DNA from: a virus
Virus genome (UHGV): UHGV-2031204
DNA: 64,000 nucleotides
Strand: one strand, 5' to 3'
The notes beneath the pieces are model-generated. The model was not told the DNA's origin and made no database searches. It saw only the letters and a program-made list of their open reading frames with translations. A program made the position numbers and the translations under genes. Shown here piece by piece: positions 12,021 to 50,179 of this stretch. How positions within the stretch are numbered: the stretch's first letter is position 1; each line of letters opens with the position of its first letter.

Positions 12021-13127
12021 ATGTTAGAAAAAACGTTTGAGACAAGCGTTGTCTCTTTCCTCTCCAGACTTCCCATGCTGTTTCGTTCGCGTGCGGAGTC
12101 GATGGAGGAATTTAACTCAGTGCTCTATAACGAGCACATTACCTTAGTCGAACAAAGCCTGCTGGGTTTAGATTACCTTCCGGGAATTCTGGAGAAAATC
12201 CAAATTTTGCTGGCAGGAAACCAATTAACGGCTATCTCACTGTTAACCGGTGTACCGGATGTTGACATTATCGGTACCCTGGATCAGGTCAGCACACGTC
12301 GTAGTGCGCTTGATAACGCAGTCCGCACCGGTTCCCGCTTAGCAGCGCTTGCAGTCGGCGAATCTGCCCGTTATGGTTTACCATCATACGATAAAATCGG
12401 CATTGCAGTCGGCGAATCTGCCCGACGGGTCGCCCAGGAATCAAAAGGTTCGGTCAGTGGCGGGAAAGGTGATCCGATTAAACAGCTTTTCGATCAAGAA
12501 GGGTTGTCCAACGGGAAAATGTTCTCAGTAACATTCGAACGTGACGGTAATAAAGTCGAACTCCCAATGCGTTTACGTTTGGATGTGAAATCCTTACCGA
12601 CCGAACAAATTGAAACACTGATTGCGTTCAGTGACCAGACGAAAACATTCTGGGAACGTTGGCTGCGTGCACGCGTTGGCGCGTTGAGTTACGTAAAAGA
12701 CATTGCGTTCTGTAACGACCTGGTAGAAGAATATCGTAAGAACCGTTATCGCGATAAGTCCGGTTATTACCGTAAGATGATGGAGAAGAAGAACGGTAAC
12801 TGGTTGTCTGGCCTGCTGTCTTTGGCACCGTCTATCAATAACGCCTCTTCCGTTATGGTGGTTTCTCAAGACACCATTGACGGCTTGACCGCACAACTAG
12901 GTGGTGAATTTGACGATTTCAATATCCGTCAGCGTGTGTTCAAAGACACCTTGACTGTCTACTATGTTGTTGTGGACACCACCTGGAATCGTGTCACTAT
13001 TTATACCCGTGGTCAGAACGGCTCTCAGGAACTCGATAAATCTGACTTTAGTAAATCGAAGTCTGGTAGCGCCGATGTAAATAAAATCATCGAAGCGTAT
13101 CGCTCTGGCGCTCAGCCAGTTCTTTAA
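12021..13127 (+). CDS. hypothetical protein
   Basis: 368 aa ORF; contains a perfect 20 nt internal direct repeat (12351-12370 and 12405-12424). Confidence 0.55.
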   Translation: MLEKTFETSVVSFLSRLPMLFRSRAESMEEFNSVLYNEHITLVEQSLLGLDYLPGILEKIQILLAGNQLTAISLLTGVPDVDIIGTLDQVSTRRSALDNAVRTGSRLAALAVGESARYGLPSYDKIGIAVGESARRVAQESKGSVSGGKGDPIKQLFDQEGLSNGKMFSVTFERDGNKVELPMRLRLDVKSLPTEQIETLIAFSDQTKTFWERWLRARVGALSYVKDIAFCNDLVEEYRKNRYRDKSGYYRKMMEKKNGNWLSGLLSLAPSINNASSVMVVSQDTIDGLTAQLGGEFDDFNIRQRVFKDTLTVYYVVVDTTWNRVTIYTRGQNGSQELDKSDFSKSKSGSADVNKIIEAYRSGAQPVL

Positions 13128-14090: not shown

Positions 14091-14651
14091 ATGTTTGAGC
14101 ACGATAGTCCTGAATTTAATGTTGCTGTAGAGCGCATTAAATCCTACATGTCGATTTTATCGAAAAACCCAATCGACACACACGATGACGAGGTTATTCA
14201 CAAAACACTGGAAGCCGCCGCCGTTATTTTACCGTACTTTCGTCTGATGGCTGCGGATTCTTTGCAGCAAGTATTATATGACGAATATCCGCAGGTCGGA
14301 TTTACCTTTAATACGTTTTATAACGAAAGTGTAGATTTCTTGCTGGATGGTAAGCGACGTAATGTGACGTTAGGGCAGTGGTCGACTTTGCTGTCGTCGT
14401 ATATGAACGATGTTCGTAACACGAAGAATGTTGAACAGACGGGTGCATTAGGCTCGCGTCTATTAGCTGCTGCGTTTGGTCGCCGAGGTACTGTACGTAA
14501 TATGGGCTCTGCTCACCAATCCGTTGAGTGTAGCAAACGTCTTTTATCTTATGCAGACCATGAACTGCTGGCACGCTGGATGACGCGCCCGAACGGGTTG
14601 TCCGACATGATCTCGTCGTTAGCAGTGTTTTTGAAAATCGCACGTCCCTAA
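14091..14651 (+). CDS. hypothetical protein
   Basis: 186 aa ORF with GGAG RBS. Confidence 0.55.
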   Translation: MFEHDSPEFNVAVERIKSYMSILSKNPIDTHDDEVIHKTLEAAAVILPYFRLMAADSLQQVLYDEYPQVGFTFNTFYNESVDFLLDGKRRNVTLGQWSTLLSSYMNDVRNTKNVEQTGALGSRLLAAAFGRRGTVRNMGSAHQSVECSKRLLSYADHELLARWMTRPNGLSDMISSLAVFLKIARP

Positions 14652-14710
14652 GGGGGCCCCTCATTCTAGGGGCGTGTAATTGGGTTATATAACCAAAGGA
14701 AATAAACGAA

Positions 14711-15982
14711 ATGGCAAATTTCGCAAAAACTCGCGCCGCTCGTGAATCGATGGAAGCGGCCGATGAAGTAATCGACGGTATCAGCAACGTTGAACCGGCA
14801 GAAGAGAACCTGGACGTCCAACTTGCGGACGTAGCATCTATCGACGGTCAGCTCGATCAGCTGGAAACCGACGGTGAAACCCTGGCTGCCGATACCGAGC
14901 GTACTGAAGACGCTATCGAACAGGCGGAAGAAGCCGTTGCTAACGGTGAAGAAATGCCGGAAGAAGCGGTTGCCCTGCACGAAGTGGCACAGGAATCCAT
15001 CGCACGTCGTTGGTGCCTGGAACGTACTAAACTGGCACGCGAATCCTATCGCCGTGGTCGTGGTATGACTGCTGCTGCCCAGGAAGGTTGGAAAGAAACC
15101 CTGAAAGATCTTTACGATCGTTTCATTCAGTTCTGTAAAGAAGTGATTGCGAAGATCAAAGACCTGAAACTGAAATATTTCAACGTCGGTAAGACCGCAC
15201 AGAAACGTGCGAAGAAATATCAGGAAATGCTGCGTAAGCTGGGCAAACAGAAGAAAGATGAGATCTCTGGTGGCTTTATCACCAAGCTGTCTATCGAAGG
15301 TAAATTCGATGCCGCTGGCTCTATCGCTATTGCGAAAGAAGTTACCGCAGGTAAAGCTAAAGGTTCCATCGCTGTTCTGGAAAAACAAGCTGGTGAAGCT
15401 GTGACTGCCGTTACCAAAGGTGACGATGACGCATTCAAAGCAATGCGTGGCGATCAGCCGGTAGAACTGTTTGGTAAAGCTGCTTCTAAACTGCACACTC
15501 TGCCGAACTTTGAAAAAGGTGATGCGTCTAAACTCCTGGCTCTGCCGGGCAACGCTTACGTTCAGGCTGGTACTAAAGAACTGGCTGGCGGCCACAAGTT
15601 CACCGCAATTGCTTTCATGAGCACCGGTGACGCTTCTGACGATAAAGACGTGAAAACTCCGTCTGTTTCTGAAATGGCTGGTGCTGCTTCTGCTCTGGAA
15701 GCGATCGGTAAAGGTTTCGAAGCCGTACTGAAAGATTTCCGTGCTTACGATTCTGAAATCGTGAAGCTGCAACAGGCTGCTGAGAATGCTGCTAAGGCGC
15801 TGAACAACGAAAAAGACGATAGCAAGTGGGATGGCCTGCGTAACGCACGTCAAGCTGCCGATTGGTCTGTTAAGAACTACCAGACCCTGAACCGCGCAGT
15901 TAGCTATGTTGCTAACACCGTTATTAGCGGTCTGAATGGCTACCTGGGTGCTGGTATCGGTGCTTACGAAAAATCTAAATAA
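14711..15982 (+). CDS. abundant acidic protein, paralog A (candidate virion inner-body or scaffold-like protein)
   Basis: Strong high-expression codon bias; acidic N-terminal third; shares N-terminus MANF..ARESME, internal RKLGKQKKDEISGGFI and C-terminus GAGIGAYEKSK with 16065-17330. Confidence 0.6.
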   Translation: MANFAKTRAARESMEAADEVIDGISNVEPAEENLDVQLADVASIDGQLDQLETDGETLAADTERTEDAIEQAEEAVANGEEMPEEAVALHEVAQESIARRWCLERTKLARESYRRGRGMTAAAQEGWKETLKDLYDRFIQFCKEVIAKIKDLKLKYFNVGKTAQKRAKKYQEMLRKLGKQKKDEISGGFITKLSIEGKFDAAGSIAIAKEVTAGKAKGSIAVLEKQAGEAVTAVTKGDDDAFKAMRGDQPVELFGKAASKLHTLPNFEKGDASKLLALPGNAYVQAGTKELAGGHKFTAIAFMSTGDASDDKDVKTPSVSEMAGAASALEAIGKGFEAVLKDFRAYDSEIVKLQQAAENAAKALNNEKDDSKWDGLRNARQAADWSVKNYQTLNRAVSYVANTVISGLNGYLGAGIGAYEKSK

Positions 15983-16025
15983 TCATTTAGATTCGTAGTT
16001 CCGTACAGTTCTTGAAATAAATCAT

Positions 16026-16047
16026 CAGGGGAACAATACGTTCCCCT
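16026..16047 (+). promoter_or_regulatory. intergenic hairpin without T-tract between paralogs (possible RNA processing or attenuation site)
   Basis: AGGGGAAC-loop-GTTCCCCT between 15982 stop and 16065 start. Confidence 0.35.
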
Positions 16048-16064
16048 TAGAGGAAAAGCTTAAA

Positions 16065-17330
16065 ATGGCGAATTTCTACAAAAACAAAATTGCTCGTGAG
16101 TCTATGGAGTCTACTTCTACTGTAGTTCCAGACGGCATCGAACTGCCAGCAGAATCCGTAGAAGGCACTCTGGCCGATATCGAGCATGACACCAAACCGA
16201 TCGAAGCTCTGGACGCTGACGCTGAACTGCTGGCAGAAGACGGCGACGAAACTGACGCTCAGCTGGATGTTCTGGATGAAGCTCAGGCTGCTGCTGACGG
16301 TGAAGGTGCAGGCGAAGACGGTGAAGAACCGATGGATGCCGAAGAAGATATGCCGGACGACGCTGCGACTGCGCTGGACGTTGCTCAGGAATCTATCCGT
16401 TCTCGTTGGAACTTCGAACACCGTTCTTCTGTTGCACACGAATCCTACGGTTCTCGTAACCGTCGTCAGGTTGCTCGTGAATCCCTGTGGGAAGACATCA
16501 AAGCCTTCCTGGGCCGTATTCTCGATTGGCTGAAAGAACAAGGCCGCAAACTGAAAGATCGCTGGCTGAAATTCCACAACCAGGGTAAATCTATTCAGGC
16601 ACGTGCTAAGAAATACGATGAAGTTATTCGTAAGCTTGGCAAACAGAAGAAAGATGAGATCTCTGGTGGCTTTATCAAGTCTCTGTCTATCGACGGCAAG
16701 TTCGTCGGTGATAATATTCCGAAACTGAAAGGTATCCTTAACCAGGTCTCCTCGTTCTATAGCGCTAAGATGCCTGCCATGGCCGCTAAAGCTGCTGAAG
16801 TGGTTTCCGATGTTACCAAAGGTAATGGCGTTAAAGTTGAAAAACTGAAAGCCGACTTTACCGAACTGTCCAAACAAGACAGTCTCCAAAACTTCAAGCT
16901 CGGTAACATGGCGGTGAAAACCGAGTATGACAACGAAGGCGGCTTCAGCTCCACCTTTGTTGAAGCTGAAAACAGCGTTGAAACTAGCGTGAAAACTCCG
17001 TCTGTTGGCGAACTGGCCAAAATCAATGCTCTCTTCAACGAAGTGGGTAAACAGATTGAGAAGAACGTTCAGGATTATCGTAAAGTCGAAAGCGCGCGGA
17101 AAACCTTTGAAGATAATATCGATAAGCTCCTGAAAGAAGTCGATAAAGTTAAGATCGACGAAAAACCGGAACTGACCGAAGGTGTACGTGCTGCCCGTCG
17201 TTTCATCACCAGCGTTAACCAGGGTCTGTCTCTGGGTGAGAAGGTTATTGCTTCTACTCAGAAACACCTGGCCGGTGGTCTGAACGGTTACCTGAGTGCC
17301 GGTATCGGCGCTTACGAAAAATCTAAATAA
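16065..17330 (+). CDS. abundant acidic protein, paralog B (candidate virion inner-body or scaffold-like protein)
   Basis: Paralog of 14711-15982 with same codon bias and conserved blocks; followed by strong terminator. Confidence 0.6.
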   Translation: MANFYKNKIARESMESTSTVVPDGIELPAESVEGTLADIEHDTKPIEALDADAELLAEDGDETDAQLDVLDEAQAAADGEGAGEDGEEPMDAEEDMPDDAATALDVAQESIRSRWNFEHRSSVAHESYGSRNRRQVARESLWEDIKAFLGRILDWLKEQGRKLKDRWLKFHNQGKSIQARAKKYDEVIRKLGKQKKDEISGGFIKSLSIDGKFVGDNIPKLKGILNQVSSFYSAKMPAMAAKAAEVVSDVTKGNGVKVEKLKADFTELSKQDSLQNFKLGNMAVKTEYDNEGGFSSTFVEAENSVETSVKTPSVGELAKINALFNEVGKQIEKNVQDYRKVESARKTFEDNIDKLLKEVDKVKIDEKPELTEGVRAARRFITSVNQGLSLGEKVIASTQKHLAGGLNGYLSAGIGAYEKSK

Positions 17331-17347
17331 TCCCTGATTGTTTAGTA

Positions 17348-17394
17348 AGAGAACCACCCTGTAATGGGGTGGTTCTCTCTTTTCTTTTTTTTTC
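17348..17394 (+). terminator. rho-independent terminator
   Basis: 12 bp stem AGAGAACCACCC/GGGTGGTTCTCT then 16 nt T-rich run. Confidence 0.75.
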
Positions 17395-17409
17395 GATTAA
17401 AATAATTTT

Positions 17410-17448
17410 CAGATATATATTACCTAGGTGAGATTACACAGTAATCTC
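17410..17448 (+). promoter_or_regulatory. conserved promoter-like motif plus dyad (copy 1)
   Basis: CAGATATATATTACCTAGGTGAGA followed by palindrome GAGATTAC-ACA-GTAATCTC; immediately after terminator, before gene 17484. Confidence 0.5.
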
Positions 17449-17483
17449 TTTACGACTTGTTTATTACGTTTAGGAGAAATATC

Positions 17484-18125
17484 ATGAGCCGCATTAATTT
17501 AACTGATTTTGTTGATGGTGTTGTGTCTACGGATAAAGGTGTTGTTACGATGGTGGCACCGAATAGTAAAGTTGTTACTTTAAATCCGGTAGAACTGATT
17601 TCTATTTCTACCTGGTTGCGCTTACTTTCTGGTAAGAAACCTAAAGACCAAGCGAAGGGTGGCCTATTAGTTGGTACACGTGAGTTTGTTTTCAAAGACA
17701 TAACCCAAGATAAACTGGACAGCATTGCTAAAGAACTGAACGGCAAGCATAAAACTCGCGACATCGGGTGTGCCGAATATGACGGAGTAACGTACCATGC
17801 GTTTCTTGATAGTCACGTAGCATTGCGTGAAAAAGAAAATGGGATGTACGATTCAGTTTGTTTCTTTCACTTAATCGCACCAACAGAAAACGAAGCTGTG
17901 TATGAAACCGTTGAAAAATCGGCGGAAGCTGTTATGGAAACGGTGTCAGAACTTATAGAAGGGATGAAAAGAATCCCACGTGTGTTGAAAGTTACTGATG
18001 GGGCTTTCGATTGTTTTAAATTATTACCCCTAATAGCTAGTAAAGAATACGAAGATGAGAACACCTTCGGACTATTCGAAATTAGTCTTTCGGAAGCAGT
18101 TGTTACTTTCTTTGAAGATTTATGA
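17484..18125 (+). CDS. hypothetical protein (first gene after conserved promoter motif)
   Basis: ATG 17484 with AGGAGA RBS, downstream of motif at 17410-17448. Confidence 0.55.
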   Translation: MSRINLTDFVDGVVSTDKGVVTMVAPNSKVVTLNPVELISISTWLRLLSGKKPKDQAKGGLLVGTREFVFKDITQDKLDSIAKELNGKHKTRDIGCAEYDGVTYHAFLDSHVALREKENGMYDSVCFFHLIAPTENEAVYETVEKSAEAVMETVSELIEGMKRIPRVLKVTDGAFDCFKLLPLIASKEYEDENTFGLFEISLSEAVVTFFEDL

Positions 18126-18130
18126 GATAA

Positions 18131-18159
18131 AAAACCCTCTACGGAGGGTTTTATTTTTT
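18131..18159 (+). terminator. rho-independent terminator
   Basis: AAAACCCTC-TACG-GAGGGTTTT then TATTTTTT. Confidence 0.65.
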
Positions 18160-18179
18160 CGACCTTTAGGAGAATAGAA

Positions 18180-18731
18180 ATGAATAAATTTAATATCTTA
18201 GACGCTGAAGTCGTATCTGAAACCAGTTTACAGCAGGAAATCTTTCGTATTCAGTTTGGCGATAAAACCATTATCGTCCCACGTCCGGTAATGATTGGAC
18301 TGGCTATTTTTATTAACTGTGCGCATTGTAATGGTTCTCAACTCTCCACGCTCACTTACAACAATTACGAATTCTATATTCCAGAACACCTGGAATACGA
18401 TCGCTTCATTGCTTCACGTCCGTTCTACAAGTTTATGTTAGACGCAGGTTATTCTACGCTGACGAAAACGTACATTCGTGATTATTCGAAGCTGGAAACC
18501 TTTTACCGTCGTCGTGGTTATCGCGTTCCTGAGCCTATTGACGGTTTTCAAACCCGCGTTGTATTACTTAAACCGCTAGAAAAAGAACTGGCTTGTTATA
18601 AACTTGATATCGAGCAGAAGTTACTGCGTGAAGATTTGTTGAATTTATACAACCAGCTTTCAGTTGTACCGAAAAACACAGTAGAAAACATTCTACCTGA
18701 TTACGGAATTAGACAATACCAGGAAGGTTAA
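18180..18731 (+). CDS. hypothetical protein
   Basis: 183 aa ORF with AGGAGA RBS. Confidence 0.55.
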   Translation: MNKFNILDAEVVSETSLQQEIFRIQFGDKTIIVPRPVMIGLAIFINCAHCNGSQLSTLTYNNYEFYIPEHLEYDRFIASRPFYKFMLDAGYSTLTKTYIRDYSKLETFYRRRGYRVPEPIDGFQTRVVLLKPLEKELACYKLDIEQKLLREDLLNLYNQLSVVPKNTVENILPDYGIRQYQEG

Positions 18732-18733
18732 AA

Positions 18734-19039
18734 ATGAAACTCAAAGCCGATGCGATATGTGTTGTTAAGTTGCCGGAAAGTAATGTGGTGTACTGCGTAA
18801 AACGGCTAGACATTCGATTACTGATACCGAGACTTAATGAACCTGGTTGGAATGGGGATTTGATGATTCCTCTGATCAGACCACTCCCTACGAACGATGG
18901 CAATATAACGCATTTGCATATGGAAGCCAAAGGGCGGTACGTTACCGTTTACCATTTAGCCGATCAGTACAAAACGAGTCGGTATACCCGAAAAGATTTT
19001 ATACGCCATTTAAGAGGCTCACTGGAGATAAAGAAATGA
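18734..19039 (+). CDS. hypothetical protein
   Basis: 101 aa ORF; stop overlaps DHFR start (ATGA). Confidence 0.5.
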   Translation: MKLKADAICVVKLPESNVVYCVKRLDIRLLIPRLNEPGWNGDLMIPLIRPLPTNDGNITHLHMEAKGRYVTVYHLADQYKTSRYTRKDFIRHLRGSLEIKK

Positions 19040-19572
19040 CAATTACAGTTTCGATGATAGCTGCTGCTGGGTTGAATAACGAAATTGGGAAAGACAATAA
19101 ACTACCGTGGCGTATTCCTGATGACTTAAAGAATTTTAAGGCACTTACATCAGGTAAGGTTATCGTGATGGGAAGCAAGACATGGGAATCGTTAGGGTAT
19201 AAACCCCTGCCTAATCGTCACCATGTCGTGTTGACGAGAAGACCTGGCGGTGTGCCCGAAATCGATGGGGTGCTTAACCTTAAGGGTGAAATGGGGTCGA
19301 TTATTGAGTTCCTCAAAACTGAGGTTGAGAAAAAGGGTTATCCTAAAGAAATCTTTATTATCGGTGGTGCAGAAATTTACCATCAGGCGTTACCTTACGT
19401 GGATAAGATTTACTTGTCACGCGTAGAAGTTAAAGTCGATGGTGCAGATGCGTTCTTTCCTGAAATCGATCGTAACAAGTTTAGACTGGTTTATAACTTA
19501 ACGCACGCTTCCAAACCGGATAGTGATGTTCCACGTTGGCATTATCAAATTTGGAAAAGAGATGGGCACTGA
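19036..19572 (+). CDS. folA: dihydrofolate reductase
   Basis: N-terminus ITVSMIAAAGLNNEIGKDNKLPWRIPDDLKNFK...VIVMGSKTWESLG matches the DHFR fold signature of E. coli FolA; about 179 aa. Confidence 0.8.
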   Translation: MTITVSMIAAAGLNNEIGKDNKLPWRIPDDLKNFKALTSGKVIVMGSKTWESLGYKPLPNRHHVVLTRRPGGVPEIDGVLNLKGEMGSIIEFLKTEVEKKGYPKEIFIIGGAEIYHQALPYVDKIYLSRVEVKVDGADAFFPEIDRNKFRLVYNLTHASKPDSDVPRWHYQIWKRDGH

Positions 19573-29862: not shown

Positions 29863-32157
29863 ATGAAAGATACCCGAATCTCTAATCTGGAGAAACTCGT
29901 ACAAGCTGGTAACTCGCTGGTACAAAGCGTCATTAGTAACAACAGTGCTGGCGAAATGTGGAACACCATCGTTGCTGGTGAGTCTGTACGTAGCAACACG
30001 AAAGTTTTTGGTACCCTGCGTGACGATGCTGCACAGCACTACGCAAACGCGTTTGCTGGCGGTAAGAAAATGTCCCACGCTGCGGAAGTTGCTTCTGCAA
30101 TGATTCTGGGTGCTGCTGGTCACGGTATGGACCTGCAAGAAAAAGTAGCGCAAGAATACGCTAAGCCAGAATTCCATAGCCGTTTTAACCTGGACGTTGC
30201 GATTCCTGGTTCCCAAGCTGGTAACGGCGACTGGGGCAAAGAGCGTATGGTTGTTGCTCAGGAATACTACACCAACAAAGATTACGACAAAAACCTGGGT
30301 CTGACCTGGACGCTGAACGTACGTGCTCTGGAAACTCAGTCTCGTTTTGCTGAGACTCTGTTCCCGACCATCACCGTTGACACCAACGATGTTGGTATTA
30401 CCGTACGTACCAAAGTGACCACCGTTTCTCGTGGTGTCATGCACGCGTTACTGACCAAAGACGTTGTTGAAGATCATCGTCGTAACCTGCACGAAGCGCT
30501 GACTGACCACACCGTTCTTCAGGACGAAGCGATCAACATCGTTCCTTACGTAATGGAAACCGGTGAAAACGCTGAATACTTCGTAAGCGAAGATCTGGTA
30601 CCGAACGAATCTGTTCGTCTGGGCCGCGTACCTCCGTACCCGACTAACTACCTGAGCTTTGCTAAAGACACTCTGAACCTGTTCCAGCTGTCTGCGCATC
30701 CGGGTATCGTTCAGGAAGGTTACGACGAAACTGATGAAATCGCACCGGGTTGTGCTCTGGGCAGCCTGCTGATTTCCGTACGTAAACCGACCGAAGAAGC
30801 GAAAGCAGGTAAATTCATCAAACTGCACGTTCGTGACATGCAGTTCGCAACCTTCCAGCGTCCTGCTGAAGGTGATGGTCGTGAGCTGGTACTGCAATTC
30901 CGTCGTACTGCGTTCTCTCTGAATGCGAAAACTACCGACTGGAAAGGCGAAGCTATTCCGGCACTGAAATCACTGGAACAGAACTCCTACACCCTGCGTT
31001 ATGTGATCACCATCAACATGTCTCTGTTCACTACCGGTCAGTTCGGTGGCAAAGTTGACATCGCTGGTCACAAACTGGAAATCGAAGGTCTGTACGACGC
31101 TACCGGTAACAAAGTTGATACCAAATCTGGTACCGGCAAAGTTATCCTGGACGGTCTGAAACTTGAACTGATGGGCTGGCGCTTCGATGGTACTCGTACC
31201 AACGAAAACCGTCGTACCCAGGGTCTGCTGCTCGACCCAATCTGGGAACAAGAAAACTACAAGCTGCAATACGGTTCTCCGATTCTGACCAAGTCTCCGG
31301 TTGGCGTTGAATACGACGATACCGAACGTCTGGACGACCTGATTTCCGCAGTTAACATCCGTAACGAACAGCTGGCTATCACTCAGACGCTGTCTTACAC
31401 CGAAGCGGTACGTAACGCTGCTGCAAGCATGATCACTCCGTGGGACAAACCGGCCATTCGTGGTCTGGGCCGTCACTGGGTTGCTCCGTGGTTCAAAGAG
31501 TCTGACTACAACGTTGATGAAGTTGTACAGTCCCTGGATACCAAAGATGCACTGATCAACGCTCGTCAGGGCCTGGTACAGCGTATCGGTAATCAGGTAA
31601 CTCAGGCTATCCAGGAATCTCGCTTCATTCCTGCGCTGCGTCTGTACACTGCCGATCCGGACATTCTGCCGAAAGTTGTTATTGCAACTGACGAACCGAC
31701 TGCATCTATGCTGCTGCTGGTACAGGGCGACCAACGTCTGCTGGGCGATCGCTACGAATACGAAGTGATCACCACCAACGATGACCGCTGGCGTATCTAC
31801 AACGCAGCTGACGGTTCCTGGACTCGTCGTCTGCAATGGTTCCTGAAAGTTCCGACTGCGGACGATGGTTCCTACAACGTGCTGAACTGGGGTAACCACT
31901 TCTGGTCTCCGATCATGGTTACCAACATCAACATTCAGCGTAACGGTTCTACCTCTAAAGAGCTGGCCGTACAGCCGCGTAACGCGCACATCTGCCACTG
32001 CCCGATCACTGGTCTGATCTGGGTTAAAGGCATCACCAAACTGGTTGAAGAAAAACTGGCTTACAATGTTTCTGTTGAACAGAACGGTCAGAAACAAACC
32101 GAAGGTGGTGTAGCAGGTAACGTTGCTGGCGAAGGCAAAGCTGCTGCTGGTAAGTAA
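29863..32157 (+). CDS. candidate major capsid protein (jumbo-phage type, 764 aa)
   Basis: Strongest codon bias in window, producing a large antisense shadow ORF; size like phiKZ-type capsid proteins; followed by strong terminator; no direct homology check possible. Confidence 0.45.
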   Translation: MKDTRISNLEKLVQAGNSLVQSVISNNSAGEMWNTIVAGESVRSNTKVFGTLRDDAAQHYANAFAGGKKMSHAAEVASAMILGAAGHGMDLQEKVAQEYAKPEFHSRFNLDVAIPGSQAGNGDWGKERMVVAQEYYTNKDYDKNLGLTWTLNVRALETQSRFAETLFPTITVDTNDVGITVRTKVTTVSRGVMHALLTKDVVEDHRRNLHEALTDHTVLQDEAINIVPYVMETGENAEYFVSEDLVPNESVRLGRVPPYPTNYLSFAKDTLNLFQLSAHPGIVQEGYDETDEIAPGCALGSLLISVRKPTEEAKAGKFIKLHVRDMQFATFQRPAEGDGRELVLQFRRTAFSLNAKTTDWKGEAIPALKSLEQNSYTLRYVITINMSLFTTGQFGGKVDIAGHKLEIEGLYDATGNKVDTKSGTGKVILDGLKLELMGWRFDGTRTNENRRTQGLLLDPIWEQENYKLQYGSPILTKSPVGVEYDDTERLDDLISAVNIRNEQLAITQTLSYTEAVRNAAASMITPWDKPAIRGLGRHWVAPWFKESDYNVDEVVQSLDTKDALINARQGLVQRIGNQVTQAIQESRFIPALRLYTADPDILPKVVIATDEPTASMLLLVQGDQRLLGDRYEYEVITTNDDRWRIYNAADGSWTRRLQWFLKVPTADDGSYNVLNWGNHFWSPIMVTNINIQRNGSTSKELAVQPRNAHICHCPITGLIWVKGITKLVEEKLAYNVSVEQNGQKQTEGGVAGNVAGEGKAAAGK

Positions 32158-48578: not shown

Positions 48579-49712
48579 ATGTCAACATTAGATTCCGATT
48601 TAGAAGTCCTTTGCGATGACTACGATCGATTGGTCGCGTTAGAATCGCTTAATGTTAAAGACAACTATCCGGCGGTTGTCGCTATCCGAAAACGGTGGGC
48701 TTTAGATGATGTCCACGTTGCGTTGGAGTCCGCAGCGATGATGGAACGCGCGCAATTTGTTGCGGACACCGAGCCTTACGCAGGGGTAGGTAAAGCGGTC
48801 GCACGCGCGACCGGCAGAGCGGTTAAGGGAGTTGGACGCGTTGCTGGAAAAGCAGCAGTGGCAGGAGCCAAAGCGTCTGGAAAATTCGCAGGTAAACATT
48901 CTAAGCAACTGGCCTTACGTTTTATCGACTTCGCGGAAGCCGCTGGTAAAGAAGTTATTAATGAACTGAAAGAAGCGACGTCCAAAGCATCGTCGTTAGA
49001 GCGGAAGCTACAGAAGTTAGAAGCACGTTTAAGTTTACTCGGTATCAAGGACACCTTAAAACCGGTTGACTGTGACACAGGAAGTTGGACAACCAAAGTT
49101 TGTTTAGAAGACAAGCCTAACGTAAAAGCATGTATTGAGTTCAGTAAGAACCTGAGCGCAATGGATGCGATGGTCAACGAGTATACTGTTAAAACACGTA
49201 CGTTAATCGGTAAGAGCAAGAAAGTTACCGAGAGCGGTTTGGAGAAAGTGGGCCGGTCAACGAACTGGGCGATTAAACGAAGCGCAGGACTGTTCGGTAT
49301 TATCGATCCGTTTAAAACGGTGAAAGCATATCCGTGGCCAGGTAACGTGGTGGTCGTTGAACACGACAGCGGTAAGATTGAGTGGGCGATTGCCCGCGAT
49401 GGTGATTTTGGCCACACAATTAAATCTCTGAACTTGCACGAAATCGGTTCAGCATTCGACGCCGTTAGAAACATTATCCGAGCGTTACGTCAGCGTGGTG
49501 CGAAACGACGTAGTGTTGGGTATACAGGAATTTATGATGAAATTCAACGTATGCGTAAGGAACTTAAGTCGCTTGAAGGGCGGGAGTTACGCGACGCTAC
49601 CGTACGTTATAAAAACGCACTGCGTTTAGAAGATGCGTTTACTACCTCGTTAGTGCGCGTTGCGGAAGGGTTACTGGAATGGTGCAGGTTGTCGCTGATT
49701 GAGGTTAAATAA
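48579..49712 (+). CDS. hypothetical protein with G/A/K-rich repeat region
   Basis: 377 aa; GKAVARATGRAVKGVGRVAGKAAVAGAKASGKFAGK low-complexity block. Confidence 0.55.
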   Translation: MSTLDSDLEVLCDDYDRLVALESLNVKDNYPAVVAIRKRWALDDVHVALESAAMMERAQFVADTEPYAGVGKAVARATGRAVKGVGRVAGKAAVAGAKASGKFAGKHSKQLALRFIDFAEAAGKEVINELKEATSKASSLERKLQKLEARLSLLGIKDTLKPVDCDTGSWTTKVCLEDKPNVKACIEFSKNLSAMDAMVNEYTVKTRTLIGKSKKVTESGLEKVGRSTNWAIKRSAGLFGIIDPFKTVKAYPWPGNVVVVEHDSGKIEWAIARDGDFGHTIKSLNLHEIGSAFDAVRNIIRALRQRGAKRRSVGYTGIYDEIQRMRKELKSLEGRELRDATVRYKNALRLEDAFTTSLVRVAEGLLEWCRLSLIEVK

Positions 49713-50179
49713 TGCGTATTACTATTATTCTCAAACCCGACAGTAAATACGGAAAGTTATACGGCGACCAGGTACTCAAACTGCACAACATGCTGTTCGC
49801 AGAAGAGAAAGTGCGTATTAGTCAGTTAACCGGTCGCGACACGTTCAACCCAATTGAACACTTAGAAGAGATTTGGCCCCAAGATTATCTCTGTGCGTGT
49901 GCCGTGGATGTCAACGAACAACTTCTGGGTTTCATGACGTTCTCAATAGGTTCTTGCTCGAAGGACACATTTGTTTATATTGGGAACTACTATGTGATTC
50001 CCGAAGCGCGTTCTCAGGGGGTAGGGCGTGCGCTTATGGACAAAGTCCGTGAATACGGAAAGTCCAAAGGTTGCGGTTGGATGAGTTTGGATGTGCTGGA
50101 CAACAACGTTAAAGCTATCTCCTTGTATGAGAAAATGGGATTCCGTACTGAATGCAGGGAAATGATAAAGGAAATCTAA
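49712..50179 (+). CDS. GNAT family N-acetyltransferase
   Basis: YYVIPEARSQGVGRALMDKV (motif A Q/R-x-x-G-x-G) and LYEKMGF. Confidence 0.65.
   Translation: MRITIILKPDSKYGKLYGDQVLKLHNMLFAEEKVRISQLTGRDTFNPIEHLEEIWPQDYLCACAVDVNEQLLGFMTFSIGSCSKDTFVYIGNYYVIPEARSQGVGRALMDKVREYGKSKGCGWMSLDVLDNNVKAISLYEKMGFRTECREMIKEI

Follow-up and report, generated by a model that had tools for sequence, protein, structure and literature searches.

Two tandem PF12699 genes as the probable major internal head protein genes of an SPN3US-like giant phage

Internal head proteins in T4 and in giant phages

In phage T4, the internal proteins IPI-III and the core proteins carry a short conserved N-terminal capsid targeting sequence that the prohead protease removes at x-E, and the basic mature proteins are packed with the DNA and ejected. 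The T4 internal proteins are much smaller than the proteins analysed here, their cleavage motif is L/I-x-E, and there is no sequence relationship between the two sets. The T4 internal-protein analogy was drawn by Ali et al. (2017).

The closest described counterparts are gp53 and gp54 of the Salmonella giant phage SPN3US, a tandem pair of high-abundance E proteins termed 'paralog family A'. Each is present at >600 copies in purified virions and heads (PMC5694885). Mass spectrometry has mapped the sites at which the S80 prohead protease gp245 cuts them: ARE-12, AQE-95 and AQE-125 in gp53, and AQE-124 and ARE-137 in gp54 (PMC10052503, Table 2). Ejection of gp53 and gp54 is assumed in the SPN3US papers. 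In other phages with proteins of the same family, Pfam PF12699 (phiKZ_IP, 'phiKZ-like phage internal head proteins'), injection into the host has been shown by fluorescent tagging, namely for phiKZ gp93, gp95, gp97 and gp90 (bioRxiv 10.1101/2024.03.24.586471) and for Goslar gp58 (bioRxiv 10.64898/2026.04.21.720040).

These systems differ in how many members they use. The PF12699 proteins of Pseudomonas phage phiKZ (gp92-gp97, gp162 and gp163) comprise six to eight very divergent paralogues with 16-28% mutual identity, varied lengths and no common terminal blocks, and a visible 'inner body' has been described for phiKZ but none for SPN3US. The motif of the phiKZ S80 protease, gp175, is S/A/G-x-E, whereas the SPN3US type uses A-x-E. 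Escherichia phage Goslar gp53-gp58 are, from their published description, virion proteins of high copy number that share the fold family and come from a syntenic region; gp58 reaches ~2150 copies, and the set consists of one dominant and five minor members rather than two co-dominant paralogues. The Goslar preprint calls the role of the mature domain 'a key unsolved mystery' (bioRxiv 10.64898/2026.04.21.720040).

A tandem gene pair orthologous to SPN3US genes 53 and 54

We analysed a 64,000-nucleotide stretch of the virus genome UHGV-2031204, hereafter the window, in which two adjacent plus-strand genes encode paralogue A (positions 14711-15982; 423 aa) and paralogue B (16065-17330; 421 aa). 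An earlier note on this DNA had described neighbouring paralogues of ~420 aa with common N-terminal, internal and C-terminal blocks, and both parts of that description proved accurate. BLASTP aligned A with B over their full length at 36% identity (E 8e-56), far beyond chance. The N-terminal blocks, MANFAKTRAARESME in A and MANFYKNKIARESME in B, are identical at 11 of 15 positions, the internal block RKLGKQKKDEISGGFI is the same in both at all 16 positions, and the C-terminal blocks, GLNGYLGAGIGAYEKSK in A and GLNGYLSAGIGAYEKSK in B, agree at 16 of 17.

Both proteins belong to an already known and characterised family. Against the Pfam gathering score of 27 bits that defines membership in PF12699, A scored 242.9 bits (E 8.7e-72) and B 195.0 bits (E 3.1e-57), covering positions 2-387 of the 387 in the profile. 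They also matched phrog_2497, 'internal head protein', with E-values of 2e-147 for A and 9e-120 for B. In the AF2 model of A (pLDDT 75.7, pTM 0.71), a central beta region at ~aa 177-315 is enclosed by long helices, giving the helix-rich architecture with a long helical bundle that is expected of PF12699. In sequence searches of the PDB, neither the single protein nor profiles built from 6 and 35 sequences found a relative; a weak match to Snf7 (E 0.019), confined to the acidic helical residues 8-85, was dismissed because it looks compositional.

A is 68-69% identical to SPN3US gp53 and B 62% identical to gp54, and the lengths are close (425 and 419 aa in SPN3US). The gene order is that of SPN3US gp50-51-52-53-54 followed by DHFR, and, more widely, the order in the window corresponds to SPN3US gp48-gp58 and to phiKZ gp87-gp97. 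Directly upstream of A, a gene at 14091-14651 (plus strand; 186 aa) encodes a PhiKZ_gp91-like vertex-binding protein, the orthologue of SPN3US gp52, that matched PF25618 (PhiKZ_gp91) with 29.8 bits against a cut-off of 27. This neighbour anchors the synteny to the phiKZ gp91-gp97 region, where the paralogue array likewise follows directly after the gp91 vertex-binding protein homologue. Capsid and portal genes also lie within the window, and the pair thus has the position in the head gene block, beside a gp91-like vertex gene, that marks PF12699 members. A and B are the positional (syntenic) orthologues of SPN3US gp53 and gp54, and the same pair was found in 64 phage records.

Like their SPN3US counterparts, A and B combine the N-terminal tag MANF...ARES.E with a C-terminal block and a PF12699 domain. 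Nevertheless, the two pairs are distinguishable. The first 15 residues are identical between the SPN3US paralogues, whereas A and B differ at 4 of them; conversely, the internal block differs between the SPN3US paralogues (KENISGGFI versus KDTVSGGFI) and is identical in A and B over 16 residues. Nucleotide identity to SPN3US is only ~75%, and none of the records in the phage collection was closer.

The earlier note had also pointed to the inner-body proteins of phiKZ-like phages as a comparison, and that relationship was borne out: hhalign gave a profile-profile match to phiKZ gp92-96 with 95.4% probability (E 1.6e-8), although the phiKZ proteins are linked to A and B by profiles only and not by BLAST. 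A third, divergent family member is encoded at 48579-49712 (plus strand; 377 aa). This orthologue of SPN3US gp94 is 59% identical to SPN3US_0094 and 25% identical to A, matched phrog_2497 (E 7e-74) and, just above the cut-off of 27 bits, PF12699 (28.2 bits), and is without the N- and C-terminal blocks of A and B.

Predicted propeptides, maturation sites and mature domains

All five of the mapped gp53 and gp54 cleavage sites are kept in the alignment with A (ARE-12, AQE-95, AQE-125) and B (AHE-126, ARE-139), as are 7/7 mapped sites in the orthologues of gp45, 47, 50, 75 and 81 encoded in the window, so that 12 of 12 mapped sites in these seven proteins are still A-x-E. From these positions we predict a propeptide of aa 1-125 in A (14711-15085, plus strand), with conserved A-x-E at E12, E95, E111 and E125, and one of aa 1-139 in B (16065-16481, plus strand), with A-x-E at E12, E109, E126 and E139. 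Among 35 family sequences, the residues at these four motif positions vary little or not at all. E111 in A and E109 in B are new predictions, each aligned with a site that in SPN3US has been mapped in the other paralogue only. The predicted maturation cut of A falls after AQE-125, ahead of GWKETLKDL, and that of B after ARE-139, ahead of SLWEDIK, where SPN3US gp54 has ARE-137 followed by SLWDDIK; the residues after the cuts, GWKETLKDL and SLW[D/E]DIK, are thus kept between the phages. One point against these cuts is that, in the medium-confidence model, the predicted maturation sites fall within a predicted helix, 119-175.

No Peptidase_S80 gene is present in the 64-kb window; one was found on a separate, near-identical contig. 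IMG/VR contig 3300045988_113438 (220,786 nt), with 96.8% identity to the window over 7.3 kb, carries the gene for a Peptidase_S80 protein (E 5.7e-83) that is 81% identical to gp245 and keeps the autocleavage site AQE-203. This is strong, though indirect, evidence that the phage of the window has such a protease.

The earlier note had proposed maturation at conserved A-x-E and S-x-E sites and processing at the conserved ends of the proteins. The A-x-E part held, since the N-terminal ARE matches ARE-12, which is cut in SPN3US gp53; the S-x-E site, SME-15, fits only the phiKZ motif. Processing of the conserved C-terminus, by cleavage between AYE and KSK, would fit A-x-E but finds no published support, and we do not claim it.

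Description of the two proteins as acidic was correct for the whole chains (pI 5.3 for A and 5.1 for B) and for the propeptides, but not for the predicted mature parts. The acidity is confined to the N-terminal 125 residues of A (pI 4.2, net charge -19) and the N-terminal 139 residues of B (pI 4.1, net charge -27). The remainder is basic, with a net charge of +10 in A and +11 in B; the predicted mature parts are aa 126-423 of A (15086-15979, plus strand; 32 kDa, pI 9.3) and aa 140-421 of B (16482-17327, plus strand; 31 kDa, pI 9.4).

Long acidic helical N-terminal regions of this kind resemble scaffold-like segments, and A and B could in principle be classical scaffolding (core) proteins that direct prohead assembly and are then degraded by the protease and expelled entirely before or during DNA packaging, leaving nothing functional behind. 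Protease-deficient SPN3US capsids contain an ordered inner T=1 shell made up mainly of gp53 and gp54, which mature heads no longer have (PMC7552025), and the 243(am114) mutant, in which gp53 and gp54 are not incorporated, has unstable heads (PMC5694885). However, purified mature virions and heads contain the 30-31 kDa mature fragments of gp53 and gp54 among their most abundant proteins. Furthermore, the basic mature parts are conserved and show purifying selection, with 72 of 90 differences from a sister lineage on sense third codon positions. We therefore consider complete expulsion very improbable. A scaffold-like role of the propeptide is compatible with retention of the mature domain, which it would complement rather than replace.

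The N-terminal region of a family member is also known to bind the capsid (PMC11297242), which raises the alternative that structural cement is the main job: the N-terminal region would form a fibre on the inner capsid surface that ties hexamers together, as residues 14-84 of phiKZ gp93 do, with the C-terminal domain secondary. In the phiKZ capsid structure, N-terminal segments of gp93 and gp162 lie on the inner surface and start exactly at the protease site (PMC11297242). The first cleavage site is 12-13 residues from the N-terminus in both systems (ARE-12 followed by S here, SLE-13 followed by S in gp93), a likeness that accompanies the paralogue array, high copy number and N-terminal S80 processing at x-E described for phiKZ. 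In addition, peptides of the SPN3US gp53 propeptide were detected more than expected for a cleared propeptide. Against this, SPN3US gp54 and most of the other substrates no longer show a detectable propeptide, and the profile alignment with the phiKZ paralogues spans residues 80-292 only, which excludes the equivalent of gp93 14-84. Moreover, cement alone does not explain >600 retained copies of each basic mature domain. Cement as the main function thus appears unlikely, though less so than complete expulsion.

We conclude that A and B are very probably the major internal head ('ejection', E) proteins of an SPN3US-like giant enterobacterial myovirus. Both proteins would be made late and in very large amounts, with a codon bias at the level of the capsid gene, from an apparent single unit closed by a terminator. 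Their incorporation into the prohead may be aided by the long acidic N-terminal propeptide, which opens with a short tag common to A and B. The S80 prohead protease would then cut after A-x-E at the positions given above, dismantling the propeptide and freeing a basic 31-32 kDa domain, a helical bundle with a beta insert, that would stay in the head with the DNA. As phiKZ gp93 and Goslar gp58 suggest, the mature domains would probably exit with the DNA at infection, and part of the N-terminal region may stay attached to the inner capsid wall. Copy number, cleavage, head retention and ejection are here ascribed to A and B by analogy, either with orthologues that are 62-69% identical or with distant members of the family.

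The earlier note had placed the pair among abundant, processed inner-body, ejection or scaffold proteins of large myoviruses. Family, orthology, the copy number of >600 and cleavage in the orthologues agree with this placement, except for a strict, expelled scaffold, because the mature parts of the orthologues stay in the head. Presence in virions and proteolytic processing, on which that note had staked its proposal, are both found for gp53 and gp54 in published virion work; on the orthologues, therefore, the proposal withstands its own refutation test.

Codon usage, transcription signals and probable exchange between the paralogues

The effective number of codons (Nc) is 31.5 for A and 36.4 for B, compared to 32.5 for the major capsid gene; these three values are the lowest among the 61 called genes, most others having 43-61. 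The extreme codon bias noticed earlier is therefore real within this window. TTA, CTA and TCA codons are absent from both A and B, which under the background usage of the window has a chance of 1.3e-8 and 1.6e-9, respectively. The bias is stricter than in SPN3US, in that neither A nor B has a TCA codon.

Long open reading frames lie antisense to both genes, at 14666-15853 (minus strand; 395 aa) over A and at 16047-17357 (minus strand; 436 aa) over B. Their lengths might suggest real overlapping genes, the second exceeding the sense gene that it overlaps. However, both frames are codon-aligned with the sense frame and stay open only because A and B are without TTA, CTA and TCA codons. The frame over A is broken by 1-2 TCA codons in SPN3US, phiEaH2, ChrisDB and Huxley, and the frame over B is broken in SPN3US, pEa29 and ChrisDB; they are reduced to 237 and 282 codons in SPN3US, and to 193 over A in phiEaH2. 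The substitutions noted above cluster on the third positions of sense codons, the first positions of the antisense frame, and the strong PF12699 and phrog_2497 matches sit in the sense frames. As the earlier note had suspected, these frames are artefacts of codon usage, and that they are genes is hardly credible.

A hairpin resembling an intrinsic terminator, with a T run after its 13-14 bp stem, begins 18 nt past the stop codon of B (17348-17388, plus strand). Its fold energy is -24.2 kcal/mol (z -5.35), with 0 of 200 shuffles as stable, and it is likely the 3' end of the transcription unit. GC-rich hairpins are also present in the spacer upstream of gene A (14640-14677, plus strand; -24.4 kcal/mol, z -2.46) and in the A-B spacer (16027-16047, plus strand; 8 bp), in neither case followed by a T run. 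A sigma-70 promoter scan of 14.0-17.9 kb returned 0 sites versus 3.8 expected, which is uninformative because such phages rely on RNA polymerases of their own. No match came from an Rfam scan of 12-20 kb.

A 40-nt tract in A (15242-15281, plus strand) is identical to 16638-16677 (plus strand) in B and encodes GKQKKDEISGGFI, the core of the internal block. The two genes share no longer identical run; across genomes, the median longest A-versus-B run is 14 nt. Approximately nine clustered differences from the A gene of the sister lineage match B in every case. Judged from these sequence comparisons, the tract is a probable short gene conversion from B to A, which would account for the full identity of the internal block.

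Similar traces are seen elsewhere. B of the sister lineage begins with the same 47 nt as its A gene, and the paralogues of 4 of 9 genomes have identical first 15-16 residues that nevertheless differ among genomes. Recurrent short-tract gene conversion, beyond selection, may keep the blocks in step and maintain the same N-terminal 'address and cut' cassette and inner contact motifs in both proteins; the cassettes would co-evolve in each lineage with a partner of both proteins, for example the inner capsid surface, gp243 or the protease, while the paralogues diverge elsewhere. We hold this explanation tentatively, at slightly less than an even chance.

Between the sister lineages, B shows 82% nucleotide identity versus 93% for A. 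B also forms many clusters at 90% identity, an observation that prompted the idea of a hypervariable, diversifying locus; this was rejected, as the genes directly downstream are much more divergent (57-70%).

The PF12699 family is of current interest, since its members rank with the most abundant proteins in the virions of nucleus-forming jumbo phages and enter the host together with the DNA. The window contributes no new function for this family. What it adds is a clean natural comparison set of two close lineages, ~90% and 97-100% identical to the window, in which terminal and internal blocks appear to have been exchanged between the paralogues. This singles out the blocks as worthwhile targets for mutation, among them the N-terminal 15 residues and the LGKQKKDEISGGFI block. 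Among the source names seen for the nearest database matches, from Salmonella and other isolate assemblies, both proteins are labelled 'hypothetical protein', and one fragment is misnamed 'preprotein translocase subunit YajC'. The main value of the analysis is thus one of annotation: such proteins can be named major internal head proteins of the gp53/gp54 type and annotated with their predicted propeptides and maturation sites.

The gene pair and its orthologues

The earlier note had described two adjacent genes with shared terminal and internal blocks, and had proposed that they encode processed proteins of the inner head. Both genes were found on the + strand: A (14711-15982, 423 aa) and B (16065-17330, 421 aa) encode proteins that are 36% identical over their full length (BLASTP, E 8e-56), and comparison of the two confirmed the blocks, with MANFAKTRAARESME versus MANFYKNKIARESME at the N-termini of the two paralogues, an identical internal RKLGKQKKDEISGGFI, and GLNGYL(G/S)AGIGAYEKSK at the C-terminus. 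A and B match the entire profile of PF12699 ('phiKZ-like phage internal head proteins'; E 8.7e-72 and 3.1e-57, respectively) as well as phrog_2497 ('internal head protein'). The gene order of the window is that of the Salmonella giant phage SPN3US from gp48 to gp58, with A and B in the exact positions of SPN3US_0053 and SPN3US_0054; A is 68% identical to gp53 and B 62% identical to gp54. Together with the retained cleavage sites, these results support the inner-head proposal, and support the assignment of the pair as the gp53/gp54 orthologues within PF12699, proteins of a well-characterised kind.

The duplication is old, given that across nine genomes orthologues are much closer than paralogues over most of their length. 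Two copies are present in all 64 phage records having a full-length match. When compared with the phiKZ inner-body proteins, as the earlier note had suggested, a 35-member family profile aligned with the gp92-gp96 paralogues (95.4% probability, E 1.6e-8). In phiKZ the gp92-gp96 array comes after gp91; in the window, the pair comes after a PF25618 PhiKZ_gp91 homologue (14091-14651).

In SPN3US, gp53 and gp54 constitute 'paralog family A', both PF12699, share their first 15 residues and are estimated at >600 copies each per head (PMC5694885). They are the chief component of the inner T=1 shell seen in protease-deficient 'mottled' capsids; this shell is lost at maturation, while gp53 and gp54 themselves remain in the head (PMC7552025). 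In phiKZ, residues 14-84 of gp93, starting from the SLE-13 cut, are resolved as a hexamer-linking fibre on the inside of the capsid (PMC11297242). PhiKZ injects gp93, gp95, gp97 and gp90 along with its DNA; of these, gp93 becomes associated with the early infection vesicle (bioRxiv 10.1101/2024.03.24.586471). Goslar gp58, with ~2150 copies, is likewise injected, and the role of the PF12699 family is still termed an unsolved mystery (bioRxiv 10.64898/2026.04.21.720040); on the role after injection, the window brings no advance.

Maturation cleavage sites and charge

The SPN3US prohead protease gp245, an S80 peptidase, cleaves after A-x-E, and the recombinant enzyme is able to cleave gp53 in vitro. 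Three cuts have been mapped in gp53, at ARE-12, AQE-95 and AQE-125, and two in gp54, at AQE-124 and ARE-137, leaving GWKETLKDLFER and SLWDDIK, respectively, as the mature N-termini (PMC10052503). All five are kept in the window proteins, as ARE-12, AQE-95 and AQE-125|GWKETLKDL in A and as AHE-126 and ARE-139|SLWEDIK in B. This supports the conserved A-x-E maturation sites that had been proposed, with cleavage itself known from SPN3US. Four motif positions are common to the A and B types (E12, E95/E109, E111/E126 and E125/E139), with little or no variation in their residues across an alignment of 35 sequences. Mass spectrometry backs each position in one SPN3US paralogue or more, which makes the sites at E111 (A) and E109 (B) new predictions.

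Seven more sites have been mapped in five other substrates (gp45, gp47, gp50, capsid protein gp75 and portal protein gp81); all seven read A-x-E in the window orthologues, and the specificity of the protease seems to be conserved phage-wide. No S80 protease gene is present in the 64-kb window. An IMG/VR contig (3300045988_113438; 220,786 nt) that is 96.8% identical to the window across 7.3 kb carries a Peptidase_S80 match (E 5.7e-83) with 81% identity to gp245 and a retained autocleavage site, AQE-203.

The orthologue of gp50 (12021-13127, + strand) has RSRAESME near its N-terminus, similar to the ARESME tag that A and B carry. The gp50 site is numbered ATE-127 in the SPN3US literature, and its window counterpart is AQE-140; that published numbering agrees with translation beginning at the internal Met-19 of GenBank gp50, so the start may have been annotated too far upstream.

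The description of the paralogues as acidic held only in part. Taken whole, A (pI 5.3) and B (pI 5.1) are mildly acidic, with the acidity residing in the predicted propeptides (pI 4.2, net charge -19 for A; pI 4.1, net charge -27 for B), but the mature parts are predicted to be basic (pI 9.3, net +10 for A; pI 9.4, net +11 for B). Basic mature domains suit proteins that are finally packed against DNA, a step that we infer. An AlphaFold2 model of A, built from the 35-sequence alignment (pLDDT 75.7, pTM 0.71), has long helices at residues 34-77, 84-100, 119-175, 319-366 and 372-417 surrounding a beta region (177-315), with residues 14-28, immediately past the first cleavage site, disordered.

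Codon usage, antisense frames and transcription context

A simple first-position-G criterion yielded 61 genes in the window, whose codon usage was compared. By effective number of codons (Nc), A (31.5) and B (36.4) lie below most other called genes (43-61); the sole other gene in the range of A and B encodes the major capsid protein (29863-32157, 764 aa; phrog_3231, E 7.5e-281; Nc 32.5). The favoured codons, CTG, CGT, GGT, GCT, ACC/ACT, TCT, ATC, TTC, CCG, CAG and GAA, are the optimal set of highly expressed enterobacterial genes. Neither A nor B contains a TTA, CTA or TCA codon, for which the chance, from Leu/Ser content and window background usage, is 1.3e-8 (A) and 1.6e-9 (B). Reverse-complemented, all three read as stop codons. 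The long minus-strand ORFs over A (14666-15853, 395 aa) and B (16047-17357, 436 aa) are both codon-aligned with the sense frame, and they are open because of this alignment and the missing codons, and for no other reason. The antisense frame is cut by one or two TCA codons in A and B of SPN3US and ChrisDB and in A of phiEaH2 and Huxley, and 72 of the 90 differences between A and its sister-lineage counterpart fall at sense third positions. These breaks and differences show that both antisense ORFs are artefacts of extreme codon usage, as the earlier note had held.

A strong terminator-like hairpin with a T run (17348-17388, + strand; z -5.35) begins 18 nt past the B stop codon and resembles the hairpin after the capsid gene. 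We infer that A and B form one transcription unit. GC-rich hairpins with no T run are present on the + strand before A (14640-14677) and between A and B (16027-16047), 20-45 nt 5' of the start codon in each of these highly expressed genes; the hairpins could be processing or stabilising elements. An Rfam scan of 12-20 kb gave zero family matches.

Just 3' of the terminator lie a gp55-like gene (17484-18125), for which a family search gave no match, and two further divergent genes (18180-18731 and 18734-19039), followed by a dihydrofolate reductase gene (19036-19572, + strand) ~1.7 kb downstream of the pair. Between sister lineages (compared: L005-L007, L039 and L040), genes in 17400-19040 have 57-70% nucleotide identity or no BLAST match, versus ~90% for the flanks, and this region looks like a variable accessory cassette.

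Probable gene conversion, a third paralogue and lineage distribution

The likeness of the shared blocks is due partly to selection and partly to probable gene conversion. Selection shows in LGK.KK..ISGGFI..L...GKF, the A-x-E|S motifs and G.NGY..AGI.AY, which A and B types of different genera have kept. The longest identical A/B DNA run in the window is 40 nt, within the internal block (15242-15281 = 16638-16677); A-versus-B comparisons across genomes have a median longest run of 14 nt. The counterpart of A in the sister lineage (L005) is ~93% identical to the window's A, and differs in this patch by a cluster of ~9 substitutions, at every one of which the window's A matches B. This pattern indicates that, in the lineage of the window, a short tract was probably converted from B to A. 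Conversely, the initial 47 nt of the sister lineage's B equal those of its A, whereas the window's B has a different N-terminus, MANFYKNKI, found also in other B variants of the same phage group; a putative A-to-B conversion at the 5' end is indicated in the sister lineage. Over the first 16 residues, the likeness of A to B is 0.83 within a genome and 0.71 between genomes (nine genomes); these residues are identical in 4/9 genomes, yet unlike from genome to genome.

A third, divergent PF12699-type protein (48579-49712, + strand, 377 aa) is the orthologue of SPN3US gp94, with 59% identity to gp94 and 25% to A; it lacks the shared N- and C-terminal blocks and has VALE|S motifs close to its N-terminus. 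The 2017 SPN3US paper lists just two members of the gp53/gp54 family (PMC5694885), and the 2023 paper names gp94 as a possible additional protease substrate. A GNAT acetyltransferase gene (49712-50179, + strand) directly follows, as gp95 does in SPN3US.

The closest DNA in the phage collection, from SPN3US-like and Erwinia jumbo phages, is only ~75% identical, so the window's lineage is missing from that collection, INPHARED, which contains no record of it above ~76% nucleotide identity. Near-identical contigs of ~220-227 kb make the lineage common in public data: they are present in ENA, Logan and IMG/VR metagenomes, and also in many NCBI assemblies that bear the labels Salmonella enterica, Escherichia coli or Shigella, perhaps because of a carrier state or contaminated isolate cultures. 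A 327-aa database fragment (P0004), 96% identical to A, is misannotated as 'preprotein translocase subunit YajC, partial [Escherichia coli]'.

The earlier note is refined by the split into acidic propeptide and basic mature part, by a codon-level account of why the antisense ORFs are open, by a third, divergent paralogue and by the probable tracts of gene conversion. The evidence for conversion between A and B extends the remark of Ali et al. (2017) that the N-termini are identical in SPN3US.
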